From Acidobacteriota bacterium (GTDB lineage Bacteria > Acidobacteriota > JAAYUB01): a stretch of DNA of 64,000 nucleotides. Location: the NCBI GenBank assembly GCA_040768985.1, contig JAXGLX010000002.1:4160637-4224636 (forward strand), given 5' to 3'. Positions 28,352 to 36,604 of this stretch are shown here, piece after piece; the stretch's first letter is position 1; every line of letters begins with the position of its first letter. The translations under genes and the position numbers were made by a program. The notes under the pieces were generated by a model. It made no database searches. It was not told the origin of the DNA and saw nothing but the letters and a program-made list of their open reading frames with translations.

Positions 28352-30385
28352 TCAGTTCTGCGGACGGGCGGCGGCCTTCAGCTCCTCGAACAGGGCGGCG
28401 GCGGAGGGATAGCGGAGCTGGCGGTCTTTCTCGAGGCATTTCAGGACGATTCGCTCCAGTTCGACGGGGAGCGACGGGTTGTAGGACCGGATCGGCACGG
28501 GCGGGGTGACCAGATGGTGGTGCAGGATGCCGTCCACGGGGTAGGGCAGCATGCCGGTGAGCATCTCGTGAAAGGTGATCCCGAACGAATAGATGTCGCA
28601 GCGCTCGTCTACGGGTGAGCCCTGCAACTGCTCCGGCGAGATGTACTTGGGGGTGCCCATGACCACGTCGGACGATTGGCCGGGCAGTTCGTGGAAGAGG
28701 CGGGCGATGCCGAAATCGGTGAGCTTGACGATCTTGTCGTCGCTGAGCATGATGTTGGCCGGCTTGATGTCCTGGTGGATGACGCCGTTGCGGTGAGCAT
28801 AGGACAAGGCCTGCAGCATGTGCCGGGCGACGTATAGGGACAGCTTCAGCGACAGGGCGCCTTTGACCTCGAGCAGCCGCTCGACGGTGGTGCCGCGGAT
28901 GAACTCCATCACGATGAAGTAGGCGTTATCGGCCTTGATGATGTCGTGGATGGCCACGATGTTGGGATGGTTAAGCTTGGCGATGGCCTTGGCCTCCGAA
29001 AAGAAGGCCTGCAGGCGGGCCGGATCCCGGGAGACCGTCACGGGCAGCTTTTTCAGGGCGACGGTGCGGTCGAGGATCTTGTCGCGCGCGCTGTAGACGA
29101 TGCCGGCGCCGCCGCGGCCGATTTCCTCCAGCTCGGTGTAGCGCTCCCCCAGCCGGATCAGAAAATCGTCCGACAGCCCGGCGTCCTTGGCGGCGGCATC
29201 CTGGTCCAGCATCGCTTTCATCGAATCGGGCTCGCTGGTCTTGTGGTCGATCGCGTCGATACGCTCGTCGACGTTCATGAAAAACGGCCGGAGACTCTGC
29301 ACCCGCGCGAACACGTCGCGGGCATGCTTGAGCCGGCCGAGTTTCTCGAGACAGAGGCCCATCTGAAAAAATTCTTCCAGGTTGGCGTCGGCGGGTTTCA
29401 CCCGCTTGAAGTACTCGACGTAGTGTTTCAGCGATTCCTGGTAGCGCTCGCTGTGGAAGTGAAGCCGGGCCATGATCACCAGGCTGTCGGTGTACTGCTT
29501 GTGATCGGCGGTGATCCTGGACAGGATTTTCAGCGCCGCCTCGGTCTCCCCCGCGGCCAGCAGCAATTCCGCCGCCCGGATGAAGTTGCCCCCCTGCGTG
29601 TAGTGCTGCACCGCTCCGGGAATGTCCCGGGCGGTTTCGCAGAAGGCGGCCGCCTTCAGCGGCAGACCCAACTGGTCGGCCAGCTGGACGATCTTCTGGC
29701 AGCGCTCCCGGAGCTGCTCCGGCGGATAGAGACTCTGGAGGTCGCGCAGGTGCGTTTCGTGGCACGCCAGCGCGCTCGCCTTGTCGTCGGCCTTCTGATA
29801 GTACTTGGCGGCCTTTTCCCATTCCTGCCGCTGGTAGAAGTACTGGCCCGCCGCGGCGTACGCCCGGCGCGCCTGTTCCGGCTGGCCCATCTCCTCGTAC
29901 AGCTCGCCGGCGCGGGCGAGGCTTTCGTCGCCCAGGCGCTCCAGCATGCGCGCCGCCATGTGGTACTGGCGGCGCTGGCGGTAGATTTCCGCCGCCCGGT
30001 CCCACCGGCCGATCTGCTTGTACACGCGCAGGGCCTGACGAAGTCTGCCTTCCCGCATCAGCGTGTCCGCTTGCAGCTCGAGCGGCAGGTGACGGAGGTG
30101 CTCGTCCCGACCCGACAGGAGGACGTATTCCAGATAGAAACAGATGGCGGTCAACACCAGCGATCCGATGAACAGCAGGCTCGGGTGAACCGATTCGCGC
30201 AATTGGATGAGCCAGAGGGCGGCCCCGGCCAGGGTCGACCGGCTGAGCACTCCGAGAAAGGAATCGAAAATGTCCCTTAACAGCGCGACGGAGAATGCCA
30301 GCGTGATGCTGTACAGCAACAGGAAGATCGACACCATGAACAGGATGGTGACGACGACTACCAATAGGTGATGCTTGAATCTCAT
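28352..30385 (-). CDS. Ser/Thr protein kinase with N-terminal membrane anchor (2 TM helices), central TPR repeats and a C-terminal Hanks kinase domain
   Basis: TM segments ([19 protein letters not shown]; [19 protein letters not shown]). TPR-like helical repeats. Kinase motifs [45 protein letters not shown]. Confidence 0.85.
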
Positions 30386-30413
30386 CGGTTCATCACGCCG
30401 GACTGTGCGGCGG

Positions 30414-31058
30414 TCAGTATTTCAGCCCGGTCAGCAGTCGGATGTAGCCGCGCATATAATACCATGCCCGAAAATCGGCGAACCGGTAATCGGCGAGAAT
30501 GGTGCGCCAGTCGCGGGCGATGAAATCCCGGGCCGGCTCGCATTCGAACCGTTGGAACAGCTGCCGCGCCAGGGGATTGAAGGTGGCCAGGTCGCGTTCG
30601 TTCCAGTCGAGGATGCACAGGCAGCTGTCCTCGGCCAAAAACTCGCCGGCGTTCTGGATGACCAGAATGCGCTGGTATTGTTCGAGTCCGTGCAGGACAA
30701 AGGAAATCAGGACCCGGTCGAAACGCCCGGCGAGGTCAAGCGGACCCTCGATGCGCCGGTCCAGCAGTTCCAGGTTGGGAAATTTCGCGGCCCGTCGCCG
30801 GAAACGGTCCTGCATCTCCGGGCCGATCTCGACGCCGACGATCCGGCCCGCGGGTCCGGTCCGCCGGGCCATCAGGGCGGCCAACCGGCCGGTTCCCGCG
30901 CCCAGGTCGAGGATCCGCTCGCCGGGCCGGATGGCCAGGTCGTCCATCACCCGCTGCAGGAAACGACGGTAGTAGCCGGCGCAGGCCAGGTCCAGCAACC
31001 GGTCGTAATGGCGGGCCGCGAAGCCGGTGAGTTCAATTTTGGGTTTTCGCGTCACCAT
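30414..31058 (-). CDS. Class I SAM-dependent methyltransferase
   Basis: Motif I ILDLGAGTGRLAALMA. The internal ATG at 31058 is used because the track start (TTG at 31112) overlaps tRNA-Ala. Confidence 0.65.
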   Translation of the reverse strand: MVTRKPKIELTGFAARHYDRLLDLACAGYYRRFLQRVMDDLAIRPGERILDLGAGTGRLAALMARRTGPAGRIVGVEIGPEMQDRFRRRAAKFPNLELLDRRIEGPLDLAGRFDRVLISFVLHGLEQYQRILVIQNAGEFLAEDSCLCILDWNERDLATFNPLARQLFQRFECEPARDFIARDWRTILADYRFADFRAWYYMRGYIRLLTGLKY

Positions 31059-31101
31059 GTCGGTCCAAATGAGAAACGACCCTTGCGGGCCGTTCGAAAA
31101 A

Positions 31102-31177
31102 TGGTGGAGCAAGGGGGTCTCGAACCCCCGACCTCGGCATTGCGAACGCCGCGCTCTTCCAACTGAGCTATTGCCCC
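31102..31177 (-). tRNA. tRNA-Ala (anticodon CGC)
   Basis: Reverse complement GGGGCAAUAGCUCAGUUGGAAGAGCGCGGCGUUCGCAAUGCCGAGGUCGGGGGUUCGAGACCCCCUUGCUCCACCA. Clover-leaf with the G3:U70 Ala identity pair, anticodon loop UUCGCAA, T-loop GGUUCGAGACC, CCA encoded. Confidence 0.85.
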
Positions 31178-31252: not shown

Positions 31253-31702
31253 TCAAGGGGCTGCGGGCGGCGCGCCGGCCGGGCCGGACGTTGAATCCCC
31301 GGCGCCGCCGGCCACGGCCAGGAACAGGCCGGAGGCCTCAGCCAGCCGCTCCCCCCGGCTGTTCACGATCCAGCCCCGCGTCAGGATCCGGCGGCCGGAG
31401 ACCTTGTCCACCTCGGCTTCCACCCGGAGGCGTTCGCCGACCGGCGCCGGCCGGCGGAAGGCCACCTCCATCCGGGCGGTGGCCGCGCGGCCGCCGCCGG
31501 CCCGCTGCGCGGCATGAGCCATCAACTCGTCGAGCAGGGTGGCCAGCAAGCCCCCGTGCACGGTGTGCCGGTAGCCCTGGTAATGTTCGGGCATCGCGCA
31601 CTCGGCGAACACCCGGCCGGTGGCCGTGTCGCGCTCGATCCGCAGGCGCAGGCCGTGCGGATTGTCCGTCCCGCAACAAAAACAGAAATTGTCCCGTTCC
31701 AT
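31253..31702 (-). CDS. PaaI/hotdog-fold acyl-CoA thioesterase
   Basis: CGTDNPHGL...HGGLLATLLDE...RILTRGWIVNSRGERLAEASGLF pattern. Start at the internal ATG (MERDNF). Confidence 0.6.
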   Translation of the reverse strand: MERDNFCFCCGTDNPHGLRLRIERDTATGRVFAECAMPEHYQGYRHTVHGGLLATLLDELMAHAAQRAGGGRAATARMEVAFRRPAPVGERLRVEAEVDKVSGRRILTRGWIVNSRGERLAEASGLFLAVAGGAGDSTSGPAGAPPAAP

Positions 31703-31868
31703 CGCGGACTCCTGAACCAAGAACATTAAATTATACACGCTCCGGCGCTCAATTGCTGGAAATCCTGCCTGTTCCGAAACCGGCGGTGAGATATGCTATC
31801 ATTTCATTATTATCAGGCGGCCGTGCGTCCGCGGACGTCATCACCGCCGTACTTTTAAGGAGGATGCT

Positions 31869-33272
31869 ATGCGCAAGGCAATGCTGAGCCTGTGGGTGCT
31901 GGCGGCTCTGACCGCCGCCGTCCCTGTCCAGGCGGGGGTTGCGGTGATCGAGGTAAGTGTCGACGGCTCGGATTACCTGCTGATCCGCGGCACCGAGATC
32001 CGCGTGGAGCACCGCAATTTCGAACCACTGGCCAATCTGAAGGTGCGTTTCGATCCGCCGACCGGTATGCCGGTGGCGGCGGTGGCCGTCACGTTGACCC
32101 GGCTGGAGGGGACGGGACCGGTGACCGTTGTGGAACAGCCGGCCGCGGGCAACGATTACACGCTGAAAATTCTCATCGACAACGACAACGAATCACTCTA
32201 CCCCCAGAAATACCGGGTCCGCCTCGAGTGGGAGGAGCCGACGGCCGGACTGTTCCCCACCATGGACCGGAGCGTCCACGACTACTTCCACTGGCGCGGC
32301 GAAGTGGATGGCACGGACCTGATCCGCATCCAGGGGTCCGGCGTGACCATCGACCACGTGCGCGCCCAGCCCATCAGGAACCAGCGCGTGGACTACACCG
32401 CCCCCCTGCCGGCGGCCAAGGTCGAAGTGGCGCTGTACACGGAGCGGGCGCGGGGGACCGTCGAGGTCATCCAGCAGCCCAGCTACGCCAACAACTACAC
32501 GGCCATCGTCCGGGTCGACGACGGGAAGTTCTCCGGATCGGATGTCTACGATGTGTACCTCTACTGGCCGAAAACAATCCCCGCCGAGGCGATCACGCCC
32601 GACGAGATGGATTTCTACTGGGAAGGCCGCGTGGACGGGGTCGACCGCGTGGTCATCCGCGGCAACAGCGCCACCCTGGAGCACCTGCAGTCCAGACCCG
32701 CCGAAGGTGTCCGGGGGCAGTTCCGCCGGGCGCTGCCCCGGCAGGAGCAGACGGTCGACCTGCATGTATTCGCGGGGCGCGGCTCGGTGAAAATCATGGA
32801 ACAGCCCGGCTGGGCCAATAATTACGCGGTGATCGTTCTGGTGGACGATTCAAACCGGGGCGGCGCCGCCGACTACCGTTTCGGCCTGCGCTGGGGGCAG
32901 GGCGGATCCGCCGGCAACGTCCCCATGACCGGCACCGCTCACGTCGGCACTCCCCCGGCCGGCACAGCCGCGGCCGGCAGCGGCGGGGTGATCCGATGGC
33001 GCGGCCGCGTCGACGGCAAGGACCGGCTGCTGTTCAAAGGCAACACCGTGAACGTGCAACACCTTGCGGCCCAGCCGATCCGCGACGCCAGCCACATGTT
33101 TTCCGATCCGCTGCCCGTCAAGGACGTGACGGTGACCCTGAACCTGATCGCCGGCCGGGGTTCGGTCCGGATCTTGGAGCAGCCGGGCCGCGGCAATAAC
33201 TACACGCTGATCGTCGAGATCGAGGACGCCGCCAACGGTGACGGCATCTACGAATTCGAACTGTTCTGGTGA
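31869..33272 (+). CDS. Secreted protein composed of four tandem approximately 110-aa repeats of an uncharacterised domain
   Basis: AAGGAGG RBS. Signal peptide MRKAMLSLWVLAALTAAVPVQA. Repeats begin near aa 29, 141, 250 and 376 with consensus W.G.VDG.D...I.G..V...H....P.........LP.....V.L....RGSV.I.EQP...NNYT.IV.VDD.......Y.F.L.W. Confidence 0.6.
   Translation: MRKAMLSLWVLAALTAAVPVQAGVAVIEVSVDGSDYLLIRGTEIRVEHRNFEPLANLKVRFDPPTGMPVAAVAVTLTRLEGTGPVTVVEQPAAGNDYTLKILIDNDNESLYPQKYRVRLEWEEPTAGLFPTMDRSVHDYFHWRGEVDGTDLIRIQGSGVTIDHVRAQPIRNQRVDYTAPLPAAKVEVALYTERARGTVEVIQQPSYANNYTAIVRVDDGKFSGSDVYDVYLYWPKTIPAEAITPDEMDFYWEGRVDGVDRVVIRGNSATLEHLQSRPAEGVRGQFRRALPRQEQTVDLHVFAGRGSVKIMEQPGWANNYAVIVLVDDSNRGGAADYRFGLRWGQGGSAGNVPMTGTAHVGTPPAGTAAAGSGGVIRWRGRVDGKDRLLFKGNTVNVQHLAAQPIRDASHMFSDPLPVKDVTVTLNLIAGRGSVRILEQPGRGNNYTLIVEIEDAANGDGIYEFELFW
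31953..33269 (+). repeat. Four in-frame tandem protein-domain repeats (about 330 nt each) within the CDS
   Basis: Repeat starts at about nt 31953, 32289, 32616 and 32994. Conserved blocks LIRIQG/VVIRGN/LLFKGN, RGSV(K/R)I(M/L)EQPG, NNY(T/A)(L/A)IV. Confidence 0.6.
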
Positions 33273-33279
33273 GCGGGCG

Positions 33280-34179
33280 ATGACGGTGCGCGTACCCGCC
33301 CGGGCGAAAGTCAATCTCCATCTGCAGGTGATGTTCCCCCGCCCGGACGGGTACCATGAACTCCGGACCATCTTCCAGACGGTGGACCTGGCCGACGAGA
33401 TTATCTTGGAGCCCGCCGCCGACGGGGAGCTGGCGCTCCGCTGCGACCAGCCGGATGTGCCCACAGGCGAAGAGAACCTGTGCCTGCGGGCCGCCCGGCT
33501 GCTCCAGACGGAAACCGGCACCCGCCGCGGCGCCCGGATCGACCTGCGCAAGCGGATCCCGATGCAGGCCGGGCTGGGCGGCGGGAGCGCCGATGCCGCG
33601 GCGACGCTGGTCGGATTGAACCGGCTGTGGGAACTCGGGTGCGCCCCGGAAGAGCTGCTGCTGTGGGGTGGGCGGCTGGGCTCGGACGTCCCGTTCTTTC
33701 TGGTGGGGGGCACCGCGCTCGGGCTGGGACGCGGCGAAGAACTGGTGCCCCTGTCGGACGCGCCGGCCCGCCACGTCCTGCTGGTGTGCCCGCCGCTGGC
33801 GGTCAGCACGGCGTGGGCCTACGAACGCCTGAATTTTCTATTGACAACAAAGGGTTTCGTGAATAAAATCCCCTCCCTGCACCGGGTGCTCGCGGACGGT
33901 CGAATGGAAGCATTCCGGGGCGTGAACGATTTTGAAGCGGCGGTTTTTCCAGAATATCCCCTGTTGCCACACATCAAATCACAAATCGCGGATTGCGGCG
34001 CCGACGGGACGATGATGAGTGGGAGCGGATCCTCGGTTTACGGGCTCTTTGACACTGCGGCTGCGTGCATGGAAGCAGAGCGTAACCTGTGCCGCCAGTC
34101 TGTGCCGGGCCGGATCATCCGCACCCGGTTCATCGGCCGAGACGAGTACCGTCGCCACCTGTTCTCCAACTGGGATTGA
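33280..34179 (+). CDS. ispE: 4-diphosphocytidyl-2-C-methyl-D-erythritol kinase
   Basis: KVNLHLQV, GYHELRTIF, PMQAGLGGGSADAAA (GHMP kinase motif). Start at the internal ATG 33280. Confidence 0.85.
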   Translation: MTVRVPARAKVNLHLQVMFPRPDGYHELRTIFQTVDLADEIILEPAADGELALRCDQPDVPTGEENLCLRAARLLQTETGTRRGARIDLRKRIPMQAGLGGGSADAAATLVGLNRLWELGCAPEELLLWGGRLGSDVPFFLVGGTALGLGRGEELVPLSDAPARHVLLVCPPLAVSTAWAYERLNFLLTTKGFVNKIPSLHRVLADGRMEAFRGVNDFEAAVFPEYPLLPHIKSQIADCGADGTMMSGSGSSVYGLFDTAAACMEAERNLCRQSVPGRIIRTRFIGRDEYRRHLFSNWD

Positions 34180-34184
34180 TCTGC

Positions 34185-34259
34185 TGGGGAGTCGTCAAGC
34201 GGTAAGACACAGGTCTTTGGAACCTGCATTCGGAGGTTCGAATCCTCCCTCCCCAGCCA
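34185..34259 (+). tRNA. tRNA-Gln (anticodon UUG)
   Basis: UGGGGAGUCGUCAAGCGGUAAGACACAGGUCUUUGGAACCUGCAUUCGGAGGUUCGAAUCCUCCCUCCCCAGCCA. Near-identical architecture to E. coli tRNA-Gln (U1-A72, 3-bp D-stem, G73). Anticodon loop CUUUGGA. Confidence 0.9.
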
Positions 34260-34320
34260 TATTTTTCCGGCGGATTCCGGCGCGCCCGCGGGCGCCGTCC
34301 GGTCGGTGAGGAGGCTTTCC

Positions 34321-35262
34321 TTGGTCAAGGGCGATCTGATCATCTTTTCCGGTTCTGCCAACGTGCCGTTGGCGGAGGAGATCTGTCGCTATCTGAAAGT
34401 CCCGAAGGGCGAGTGCCGGCTCAACCGGTTCGCCGATGGCGAACTCTATTTCCAGAGCCATGAAAACGTCCGCGGGCGCGACGTGTTCATCATCCAGCCC
34501 ACGTCGAATCCGGTCAACGACCATCTGATGGAACTCCTGATCATGATCGACGCCTGCAAGCGGGCGTCGGCCTCCCGGATCACGGCGGTCATGCCCTATT
34601 TCGGTTACGCCCGCCAGGACCGCAAGGACAAGCCGCGCGTGCCGATCTCGTCGAAGCTGGTGGCTGACCTGCTGACCGCCGCCGGCGCGAACCGGATCCT
34701 GACCATGGACTTGCACGCGTCCCAGATCCAGGGGTTCTTCAACATCCCGGTGGACCACCTGTTTGCGGCCCCGGTGATCCTGGACTACATCTCCTCGTGC
34801 AATTTCGAGGACCTGACCATCCTGTCGCCGGACACGGGCGGCGCCGAACGGGCCCGGGCCTACGCCAAACGGCTCAACGCCGGGCTGGCCATCGGCGACA
34901 AGCGACGGGTTGCGGACAACGTGGCCGAAGTCATGCACATCATCGGCGACGTCGAGGCGAAGACCGTGGTCATCTGCGACGACATGATCGACACGGCCGG
35001 CACGGTGGTGGAAATCGTGCACGCGCTGGGTCTGCTCGGGGTCAAGCGGATCGTGGTGGCGGCCACCCACCCGGTGTTCAGCGGTCCCGCCTTCGAGCGG
35101 CTGGGCCAGCTGGCGCTGGAGGAGATCGTAGTGACGAACTCCATTCTGATACCCGAGGGACGGCGGCTGCAGAACCTCCGGATCCTGTCGGTGGCCGCCC
35201 TGTTCGGCGAGGCCATCCGCTCGATCCACTACGAGACGTCGATCAGCACGCTCTTTGTCTGA
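34321..35262 (+). CDS. prs: Ribose-phosphate pyrophosphokinase (PRPP synthetase)
   Basis: IIFSGSANVPLAEEI..., DVFIIQPTSNPVNDHLMELLIMIDA, and the PRPP-binding loop. A TTG start at 34321 preceded by GAGGAGG (6-nt spacing) is preferred over the GTG at 34306. Confidence 0.85.
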   Translation: MVKGDLIIFSGSANVPLAEEICRYLKVPKGECRLNRFADGELYFQSHENVRGRDVFIIQPTSNPVNDHLMELLIMIDACKRASASRITAVMPYFGYARQDRKDKPRVPISSKLVADLLTAAGANRILTMDLHASQIQGFFNIPVDHLFAAPVILDYISSCNFEDLTILSPDTGGAERARAYAKRLNAGLAIGDKRRVADNVAEVMHIIGDVEAKTVVICDDMIDTAGTVVEIVHALGLLGVKRIVVAATHPVFSGPAFERLGQLALEEIVVTNSILIPEGRRLQNLRILSVAALFGEAIRSIHYETSISTLFV

Positions 35263-35303
35263 TGCGTTGACTGGCATATTTAACGTTAGCAGGAGATATT
35301 CCG

Positions 35304-35942
35304 ATGGAAAGAATGACAATCGAAGCGCGGCGGCGTTGGGATTTGGGCAAAAACGGCTCGCACCGCCTCCGCGAGACGGGCTGGGTCCCGGCCGTCGTCT
35401 ACGGCAAGGATACGGACCCCCTGCCGCTGGCCGTGGACCTGGCGCTCATGGACCGGCTGATGCACAATCCCGAAGCCCGCAACCAGATCTGCAACCTCAA
35501 GGTGGACGACATGAAGCAGCTGGCGGTGCTCGTCCGCGACTACCAGCTGGACCCGATCCGGGGCGAACTGATTCACGTGGACCTGATGGTCGTGAATGAA
35601 CAGCGCGCCATCAAGGTCAAGGTGCCCATCGAGACAGTCGGCGTGCCGGTCGGCGTCAAGACCGCCGGCGGCATGCTGGTGGTCCTGGTCCGCGAGGTGC
35701 CCGTCGAGTGCCTGCCGCAGCACATCCCGGCGGTGATCCGCCTGGATGTCAGCGGCCTGGAGCTCGACCAGAGCCTGCGGATCCGCGACCTCCAACTCGG
35801 CGACAAGGTCACGATTCTGATGGATCCGGAAGTCAACATCGCCCACGTGGAAGAGACGCGGGCCGCGGTGGCCGAGGAAGCCCCCGCCGCCGGAGCGGCT
35901 GAAGCCGCGGCCGAGTCCGGAGAGCAGGGAGAAGAATCCTGA
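35304..35942 (+). CDS. rplY: 50S ribosomal protein L25 / general stress protein Ctc (long form)
   Basis: AGGAG RBS. L25/Ctc N-terminal beta-barrel (LRETGWVPAVVYGK) plus a C-terminal extension with an acidic tail. Confidence 0.8.
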   Translation: MERMTIEARRRWDLGKNGSHRLRETGWVPAVVYGKDTDPLPLAVDLALMDRLMHNPEARNQICNLKVDDMKQLAVLVRDYQLDPIRGELIHVDLMVVNEQRAIKVKVPIETVGVPVGVKTAGGMLVVLVREVPVECLPQHIPAVIRLDVSGLELDQSLRIRDLQLGDKVTILMDPEVNIAHVEETRAAVAEEAPAAGAAEAAAESGEQGEES

Positions 35943-35950
35943 CGGAGGGC

Positions 35951-36604
35951 ATGCCGGACCCTGCGGACGTCCGCGCGATATTTGGACTGGGAAATCCGGG
36001 ATTGGCCTATCGGTTCAACAGGCACAATGCCGGATTTCTTTTTCTGGATCGCCTGCTGCGGGATGACCGCGTCACGCGGCTGGAGCGCCGCGACGAAGCG
36101 TCAAGCCGAGTCGATTGGGTGCTGTTGGGCGGCGCCCGCCTGCTGCTGGTCCGGCCGCAGACGTTCATGAATCTGAGCGGCGCGGCCTTCGGGGCCATCC
36201 TGGCGGCGCACGGATGGGAGCCCCGCCAGGCCCTGTTGATCTATGATGACCTGGATCTGCCGCTCGGGTCTTTTCGCCTGCGTTCGCGGGGAGCCCCGGC
36301 CGGGCACCGGGGTGTCCGGAGTATCCTGGAGAATGCCGGGACCACCGCCGTCCCGCGCCTGCGGATCGGGGTGGGGCCCCGGCCGCCGGAGGTCGAGGCC
36401 GCCGACTTCGTTCTGGCCGATTTCACGGCAGCCGAGCGGTCCCGGCTGGAGGCGGTGTTTGATGGGGCGGCGGATGCGCTGGTTTGCGTCCTGACCGAGG
36501 GATTGACGGTCGCAATGAGCCGTTACAATGTTCGCCGGACGCCGCCGGGCCCCGAATCCGGACCGGCGGCCGGGCTGGACGCAACGCAGGAAAAAAAGTT
36601 GTAA
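35951..36604 (+). CDS. pth: Peptidyl-tRNA hydrolase
   Basis: IFGLGNPGLAYRFNRHNAGFLFLDRL, catalytic His and Asp. Confidence 0.85.
   Translation: MPDPADVRAIFGLGNPGLAYRFNRHNAGFLFLDRLLRDDRVTRLERRDEASSRVDWVLLGGARLLLVRPQTFMNLSGAAFGAILAAHGWEPRQALLIYDDLDLPLGSFRLRSRGAPAGHRGVRSILENAGTTAVPRLRIGVGPRPPEVEAADFVLADFTAAERSRLEAVFDGAADALVCVLTEGLTVAMSRYNVRRTPPGPESGPAAGLDATQEKKL

Follow-up and report, generated by a model that had tools for sequence, protein, structure and literature searches.

The protein considered here is built of four repeats and is encoded in a 64,000-nt stretch of DNA from an Acidobacteriota bacterium (GCA_040768985.1, JAXGLX010000002.1, positions 4,160,637-4,224,636 of the forward strand), the whole of which was analysed and is referred to below as the window. 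Its closest described counterparts are carbohydrate-binding modules (CBMs) and tandem-repeat lectins. Like these, it consists of a small, discrete, all-β module of about 100 aa, it is predicted to be exported, and it carries the module in tandem copies, an arrangement that would give avidity; elsewhere in its family the module follows a glycosidase-like catalytic region or genuine lectin domains. It differs in that it has no match to a Pfam CBM or lectin and no Foldseek match to a solved CBM. A second precedent is EclA, a 'superlectin' of Enterobacter cloacae in which a LecA-family domain is joined to a novel C-terminal domain of about 150 aa, which forms a strand-swapped dimer and bears a fucose site (PMC11875179). 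Members P0024, P0028, P0030, P0032 and P0033 of the present family likewise combine an N-terminal LecA/PA-IL domain with an uncharacterised C-terminal β domain. The module is, however, shorter than EclA's C-terminal domain (about 100 against about 150 aa) and is present twice in these members, and the window protein has no LecA domain. Profile searches of the PDB and Foldseek tied the module to no deposited chain and gave no link to EclA's C-terminal domain.

Two further comparisons concern position. The C-terminal domains of T9SS substrates and the SLH and LysM modules resemble the module in being almost always C-terminal, of similar size, β-rich and found in tandem, with surface enzymes or lectins as passengers. 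In the window protein, however, four copies make up the whole of the mature chain, whereas single C-terminal copies are found elsewhere in the family. The Por_Secre_tail, SLH and LysM models gave no match, and for Por_Secre_tail-type models there was none at E ≤ 10 or among 77 domain instances. An assignment as a T9SS C-terminal sorting domain was rejected, both for want of a model match and because four copies are found instead of a single C-terminal one on a passenger. The second comparison is with LolB: in E. coli, as in the window, the gene for an exported protein lies directly 5' of ispE-prs and is probably co-transcribed with these genes. This likeness is positional only, as the window protein has neither a lipobox nor a cysteine and is of another size and architecture. 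The analogy was rejected because the signal ends in VQA/G, with no lipobox, and because a BLASTP comparison with E. coli LolB gave a best E of 2.1. The features of the locus are as follows.

31253-31738, minus strand: divergent gene for a 4HBT-fold thioesterase (Pfam 4HBT), a neighbour kept in loci L006-L008, L028 and L029
31786-31813, plus strand: sigma-70-like promoter candidate GTGAGA-16-TATTAT (9/12 consensus matches, a pattern match only)
31857-31863, plus strand: Shine-Dalgarno sequence AAGGAGG, 5 nt 5' of the ATG (direct sequence reading)
31869-33272, plus strand: coding sequence of the 467-aa four-repeat protein, predicted to be exported, TGA included (ORF list and translation)
31869-31934, plus strand: predicted Sec signal peptide, aa 1-22, MRKAMLSLWVLAALTAAVPVQA followed by G, with no lipobox cysteine (sequence features and AF2 helix)
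31935-32240, plus strand: repeat 1, aa 23-124, divergent subtype (HMM envelope 20-124, score 102)
32271-32576, plus strand: repeat 2, aa 135-236, canonical (HMM score 126; conserved residues kept)
32598-32903, plus strand: repeat 3, aa 244-345, canonical (HMM score 123; key-residue table)
32904-32975, plus strand: linker rich in Gly, Ala, Thr and Pro, aa 346-369, predicted to be disordered (pLDDT <50 at residues 347-371 of the full-length model)
32976-33269, plus strand: repeat 4, aa 370-467, canonical (HMM score 121; AF2 pLDDT 96.7, pTM 0.88)
33280-34179, plus strand: ispE (CDP-ME kinase; Pfam GHMP_kinases_N/C), with no terminator-like site at the junction
34185-34259, plus strand: tRNA-Gln(UUG), between ispE and prs (ARAGORN and Rfam)
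34306-36604, plus strand: prs, rplY (L25/Ctc) and pth, the downstream context (Pfam)

The divergent intergenic region that holds the promoter candidate is 130 nt long. Many long spurious ORFs arise in high-GC DNA, and several overlap the locus in other frames; on these grounds the repeats could owe their likeness to chance or composition, or the reading frame might be no real gene. This explanation, to which we leave virtually no probability, is refuted by the z-scores of the repeats against shuffled sequences (23-39), the 2,228 homologous clusters, an AF2 model with a pLDDT of 96.7, the strong ribosome-binding site noted when the sequence was first read (AAGGAGG, 5 nt before the ATG) and a dN/dS of 0.16. 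The last value was obtained against the orthologs in L006 and L007 (about 85% amino-acid identity), and the same comparison gave 0.16-0.18 for ispE. Purifying selection thus acts on the four-repeat gene as strongly as on ispE. The window protein differs by one residue from cluster P0001, which is listed as 100% identical. Its N-terminus, with MRK, a hydrophobic core and VQA/G, looks like a Sec signal peptide, and residues 2-15 form a helix in the AF2 model; the protein had been described as secreted, and the prediction agrees. The mature protein would consist of 445 aa, with a pI of 5.4 and zero cysteines.

To assess the repeats, the protein was cut into four segments, which were aligned pairwise and compared with shuffled controls. 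Local alignment scores of 117-215 were obtained, where shuffled sequences averaged about 25 (sd about 4.6); this corresponds to z = 23-39, and the pairwise amino-acid identities were 33-45%. An HMM built from the repeats placed four envelopes, at aa 20-124, 135-236, 244-345 and 370-467. Self-BLASTP of the whole protein returned the identity match alone and did not recover the repeats. Both the four tandem copies and the conserved motif blocks of the sequence-only reading therefore stand, the latter agreeing with the family consensus W.GRVDG.D ... H ... LP ... GRG.V.I.EQPS..N.YT ... DD...G...YEF.L.W; the example repeat that it had singled out, aa 141-249, is slightly out of register with the domain limits, 135-236. 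According to the key-residue table, repeat 1 lacks the consensus residues W8, G10, R61, D84 and G88, and the motif NDNE..YPQ.Y, kept among orthologs, is peculiar to it. The C-terminal end of the protein is the end of repeat 4 (...YEFELFW). A second copy of the domain was looked for in the 64-kb window and was not found.

The repeats are old. Their DNA identity is 45-58%, and at third codon positions 38-54%, which is near saturation. Among 13 four-repeat proteins, a given repeat is 47-50% identical to the repeat at the same position in other proteins and 31-40% identical to the other repeats. Since each repeat is closest to its positional counterpart, the quadruplication is older than the divergence of these lineages. 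The earlier view of an old duplication maintained by selection is thus upheld by the DNA identities, by the position-wise orthology of the repeats and by the dN/dS of 0.16.

No named domain had been recognised in the sequence, and the searches gave the same answer. With the whole protein, Pfam-A returned nothing significant (best Transthyretin, E = 0.15, 13 bits against a cut-off of 25.3; MCR_D, E = 0.29), and neither did NCBIfam (best HslO, 21.5 bits against a cut-off of 244). When 77 domain instances were scanned singly, no family was matched by more than 2 of them. PDB sequences, searched with single sequences and with profiles, yielded no significant match for the domain. A structural match of the repeat to a well-characterised family, which would have spoken against a new domain, was not found either: in the PDB, Foldseek gave none at E ≤ 0.001 for the single domain or the full-length model (best E for the single domain, 0.4). 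The top Foldseek matches (the C-domain of Clostridium perfringens enterotoxin, the ColG collagen-binding domain, Cry toxins, TbpB and myoferlin) were disregarded, with TM values of 0.1-0.37. In BFVD there was one significant match, an unnamed viral protein of 1,150 aa (E = 7e-5, TMq 0.75); the remaining matches there were resemblances to phage tail fibres with TM 0.4-0.48 and were not significant. The name 'DUF971 family protein' carried by P0020 at JGI is backed by no Pfam match and was set aside. A literature search turned up no account of the domain.

The domain is nevertheless widespread. A first homology search gave 43 clusters, and the few of these with an organism name were Acidobacteria MAGs. 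A profile search of 1.84 billion cluster representatives then recovered 2,228 clusters at E ≤ 0.001 and 1,026 at E ≤ 1e-10, counted at 50% identity; a profile search had been proposed in the first reading as a check on distribution. A scan of genome loci with a 12-sequence alignment found the domain at 17 MAG loci, of which 10 are from Acidobacteriota, 3 from Hydrogenedentota and one each from Deferribacteres, KSB1, Planctomycetales and an unclassified bacterium. Pirellulales, Omnitrophica, Bacteroidetes, Armatimonadota and Gemmatimonadaceae appear as further source names. When an annotated collection was searched with the domain profile, all 18 proteins among the matches listed were named 'hypothetical'. 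In a set of 189 proteins the domain occurs in 1-5 copies, two being commonest, although this sample is skewed to multi-copy proteins because the list was ranked by score. The last copy ends no more than 12 aa from the C-terminus in 185/189. Where 15 aa or more precede the first domain, as they do in 167 proteins, a hydrophobic N-terminal segment is found in 153 and a lipobox-like motif in only 7; 410 of 456 domain copies are cysteine-free. These features suggest that nearly all members of the family are exported.

Structure prediction on one repeat had been proposed as a check, with β-sandwich or lectin-like folds in mind. For repeat 4, AF2, run with an alignment of 77 non-redundant domain instances, returned an all-β model (pLDDT 96.7, pTM 0.88) in which two strands are very long and four are short. 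Independently of this, co-evolution analysed by mean-field DCA over 574 distinct domain instances (Meff about 499) gave antiparallel ladders between b1 and b8, b2 and b3, b2 and b7, b5 and b8, and b6 and b7. These ladders imply two four-stranded sheets of order 4-1-8-5 and 3-2-7-6, an order derived from co-evolution and not from coordinates. The classical jelly roll has the strand order 1-8-3-6 / 2-7-4-5, and in this the module, by its co-evolution-inferred sheets, differs from CBMs of that fold. The strongest DCA couplings join D13, R61, D84, G88 and Y92, and the invariant loop residues would therefore meet at one end of the domain. The conserved cluster may be a ligand site or a structural salt-bridge network.

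The full-length AF2 model (pLDDT 82, pTM 0.43) is of low confidence at residues 124-130 and 347-371, and we read it as four independent domains on flexible linkers, like beads on a string. Such an arrangement, together with a copy number of 1-5, would also suit a domain for protein-protein oligomerisation, for example in fibres or lattices, with no ligand of its own, the four-repeat protein then being a structural matrix component or a periplasmic scaffold. The weak resemblance to phage tail fibres (TM 0.4-0.48) and to the unnamed viral protein (E = 7e-5) points in the same direction. However, the resemblances to tail fibres lack significance, no packing between domains is predicted in the full-length model (pTM 0.43), and the invariant polar residues D13, R61, Q69, N74 and D84 look more like a ligand site than like an interface. 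We regard a pure scaffold as quite unlikely.

The partners to which the domain is fused elsewhere in the family are more telling as to its function. In P0041-P0043, ricin-B β-trefoil lectin repeats are followed by a single C-terminal copy of the domain; RicinB_lectin_2 is matched in P0042 with a Pfam E of 1e-45, and precomputed Pfam matches are present in P0041-P0043. In the subgroup with an EclA-like layout, the N-terminal modules score individually just under the Pfam PA-IL cut-off, and a seven-sequence profile of this module matched PllA (E = 2.6e-10) and PA-IL/LecA (E = 1.5e-8) in the PDB. The LecA/PA-IL and ricin-B domains are present only in these other members; Pfam found neither in the window protein.

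The third partner is a GH67-like family of at least 198 clusters, in which exactly one C-terminal copy of the domain is found in 114/114 full-length members. The domain ends the protein in 117 of 120 listed members, and the other three are shorter, probably truncated sequences. A 35-sequence profile of the N-terminal part of this family matched a GH67 α-glucuronidase in two collinear segments (E = 3e-8), the N-domain of the GH84 protein NagJ (E = 1.5e-5) and a second GH67 enzyme (E = 1.5e-4). The proteins of this family are about 800 aa long and come from Hydrogenedentota, KSB1, Planctomycetes and other phyla. A seven-sequence profile of them had no significant match in the PDB; single sequences and the seven-sequence profile gave sub-threshold hints of DUF4838, GH67 and NagJ. 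One criterion for a CBM is that it be a discrete module within carbohydrate-active enzymes, and in the GH67-like family, whose glycosidase function is predicted, the domain is found as such a module. A setting of three unrelated carbohydrate-active partners is classic for modules that bind carbohydrate or anchor proteins to the surface. We describe the domain as an accessory β module of carbohydrate-active proteins that lies outside every catalogued family.

The same fusions bear on a second possibility, in which the module, akin to SLH, LysM and T9SS C-terminal domains, fixes a passenger (a lectin or glycosidase) to the outer membrane, the wall or a surface layer, and proteins made of the module alone are structural components of the surface or matrix. 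Its terminal position in 185/189 members, and in 117 of the 120 listed GH67-like members, would be expected of an anchor, extracytoplasmic enzymes and lectins would gain from surface display, and tandem copies are typical of wall-binding repeats. A precomputed Pfam S_layer_C match in a few members of the GH67-like family fits as well. Yet no known anchoring or sorting model was matched in Pfam or NCBIfam, a protein of four anchors would have no passenger, and the family covers phyla with very different envelopes. Moreover, the target of such an anchor would probably itself be a glycan, in which case this explanation merges with sugar binding. We consider anchoring rather unlikely, although it is the likeliest alternative to sugar binding.

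Sugars are the most likely ligands of the domain, given that its fusion partners are lectins and a glycosidase-like enzyme. The reading that we put first, at a probability of roughly 45%, is that the window protein is an exported, multivalent CBM-like or lectin-like protein. The module would be an uncatalogued, all-β, carbohydrate-binding domain (CBM-like or lectin-like) of about 100 residues, which in other bacteria forms the C-terminal end of proteins recognising or cleaving glycans. The window protein would represent a multivalent form that stands alone, in which three copies are canonical and the N-terminal one is specialised. Its ligand would be a polysaccharide from the cell envelope, the extracellular matrix or the surroundings, which it would also cross-link or coat by avidity. 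The candidate ligand site is the polar and aromatic cluster formed by W8, D13, R61, Q69, N74, Y76, D84 and Y92.

Sugar binding is suggested by the three independent carbohydrate-related partners predicted from sequence (ricin-B, LecA/PA-IL and GH67-like) and, by analogy, by the precedent of EclA, in which a LecA domain is followed by a novel C-terminal domain with a sugar site. In addition, two divergent members lie behind GT-C genes (three PMT_2 genes in one case, GT87 in the other). Several observations speak against it. Neither in sequence nor by Foldseek does the module resemble a known CBM or lectin. Fusion to lectins and glycosidases would be just as natural for an anchoring or oligomerisation module, and the strict C-terminal placement (185/189) is more typical of anchoring and sorting modules than of CBMs generally. 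The conserved residues might serve the structure alone, R61 and D84 for instance by forming a salt bridge. Finally, repeat 1 is without most of the cluster, and a carbohydrate theme is absent from most of the gene neighbourhoods examined.

The gene lies immediately upstream of ispE. The stop codon, TGA at 33270-33272, had been placed 8 nt before ispE; 7 nt lie between position 33272 and the ispE ATG at 33280, so that the statement was essentially right. Downstream, ispE, tRNA-Gln, prs, rplY, pth and rpsF follow in this order; an Rfam scan of the window found two tRNAs and no other element. The order of the divergent thioesterase gene, the repeat gene, ispE, prs, rplY and pth is shared by the window, L006 and L007 (about 85% identity), L008 (55%), L028 and L029, and in L028 the stop of the repeat gene overlaps the ispE start by 4 nt. 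In L001/L009 (50% identity), the repeat gene, ispE, prs, rplY and pth are kept and a different upstream gene replaces that of the thioesterase. The tight junction is thus kept in seven loci of related organisms, down to 50% identity. These loci belong to one acidobacterial lineage, in which co-transcription of the repeat gene with ispE is likely, as had been suggested from the adjacency, and no terminator-like site is present at the junction.

The linkage is lost in more distant homologs. P0019 (39% identity, four repeats) is encoded between dnaK and a DUF2582 gene, and P0023 (37% identity, four repeats) directly after three PMT_2 glycosyltransferase genes, both without ispE, and the linkage is absent from every member with 1-3 copies that was examined. 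One MAG carries both the ispE-linked gene (L008) and an unlinked paralog (L010), with about 320 aa aligned to the window protein. Of the link to ispE proposed from the sequence, then, the adjacency stands and is lineage-specific. Because the linkage is lost with distance, it argues only weakly for a functional connection with isoprenoid synthesis, and the place before ispE is probably an inherited operon slot in one acidobacterial lineage, with no functional coupling.

A functional coupling to ispE, or to isoprenoid-dependent envelope biogenesis, would make the protein a periplasmic factor for polyprenyl-phosphate-linked glycans or lipoproteins, in the slot of lolB. GT-C glycosyltransferases use polyprenyl-phosphate sugar donors, and the genes of two distant members, P0023 and another divergent member immediately downstream of a GT87 (GT-C) glycosyltransferase gene, directly follow genes for such enzymes. 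The junction conserved in seven loci down to 50% identity, with one 4-nt overlap, and the order lolB-ispE-prs in E. coli would also accord with coupling. We nonetheless judge it highly improbable: the linkage is lost in the four-repeat homologs of 39% and 37% identity and in all examined members with 1-3 copies, the protein lacks a lipobox and does not resemble LolB, and the remainder of the cluster (tRNA-Gln, prs, rplY and pth) is housekeeping in nature, with no common pathway. The two members behind GT-C glycosyltransferases provide a lead to envelope-glycan biology that is not yet a pattern. A bolder form of the sugar-binding proposal, and a very doubtful one, is that a new carbohydrate-binding family, its β-sandwich topology absent from solved structures, is founded by the module and that, in this acidobacterial lineage, the four-repeat protein takes part in envelope-glycan assembly as a factor of the periplasm or the surface; the ispE operon and the placement behind GT-C genes would then reflect a link to polyprenyl-phosphate-dependent glycan biogenesis.

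The family is found chiefly in uncultured Acidobacteriota, Hydrogenedentota, KSB1 and Planctomycetes, groups in which very few surface or glycan-handling proteins have been characterised. Should the module turn out not to bind sugars, it still deserves to be catalogued as a large, well-defined domain of unknown function. If it does bind them, it would constitute a new CBM or lectin family of about 2,200 clusters at 50% identity and a new CAZy and Pfam entry with a high-confidence structural model, and the C-terminus of a widespread family of GH67-like enzymes would be annotated. The stand-alone forms with 2-5 copies, such as the window protein, would then be candidate cross-linkers of matrix or EPS in soil and sludge bacteria.

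The uncatalogued domain of about 100 residues that makes up the repeat protein is also carried by a family of proteins of about 800 residues, which comprises at least 198 clusters (for example, loci L016-L022 and clusters P0208-P0327, in other phyla). The N-terminal region of these proteins is remotely GH67/DUF4838-like, and the domain is followed by a conserved C-terminal tail, P..LGL..PW; a precomputed Pfam match is absent in most members. Two further types of N-terminal module were found joined to the domain. P0034, P0093, P0099, P0105 and P0114 have a Cys-containing module of about 100-185 residues, marked by recurring 'Y..GY.DG' motifs, ahead of two domain copies. This module gave no significant Pfam match; the sole match for these proteins, to ChitinaseA_N, was sub-threshold (E = 0.019) and fell outside the module. 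In P0035-P0040, a single copy of the domain follows another uncatalogued module, of about 165-180 residues, which looks helical from its sequence. A Pfam scan of P0039 was empty and the precomputed annotation of the others gave no match; P0038 showed, in addition, a weak Gly-zipper match.

The sole significant structural match to the AlphaFold2 model of a single domain was the BFVD entry A0A7D3QNP9, an unnamed viral protein of 1,150 residues (E = 7e-5, TMq 0.75, 15% identity).

Two of the family members, P0023 and P0029, are each encoded directly 3' of GT-C-type glycosyltransferase gene(s) on the same strand, and a Glyco_transf_22 gene also lies near P0029 in L026:

Glycosyltransferase genes immediately upstream of family members
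L005 1-5985, same strand as P0023: three tandem PMT_2 genes
L026 3782-4957, same strand as P0029: GT87 gene

The Acidobacteriota MAG CAYPNP01 has two family genes, the four-repeat gene linked to ispE (L008) and a paralog at an unrelated locus (L010), the product of which is 44% identical to the window protein over about 320 residues.

Upstream of the repeat gene, on the opposite strand, window 28352-31177 (-) holds genes for a TPR-containing Ser/Thr protein kinase and a class I SAM methyltransferase, together with tRNA-Ala(CGC). Comparison of the kinase and methyltransferase genes showed that their order is conserved in the relatives L006-L008. Among relatives that keep the repeat gene-ispE junction, the gene cluster varies 3' of pth:

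Genes found downstream of pth in two relatives
L001 10755-12836: H+-pyrophosphatase gene, inserted ahead of rpsF
L028 8646-10390: GH2-family glycosidase gene

A consensus scan of the region returned its top sigma-70-like match within ispE:

Window 33841-33869 (+): TTGACA-17-TAAAAT, 11/12

The site is placed some 315 nt ahead of tRNA-Gln, which suggests a possible independent promoter. As judged from sequence, tRNA-Gln-prs-rplY-pth may thus be expressed from a promoter of their own, internal to ispE and separate from that of the repeat gene and ispE.
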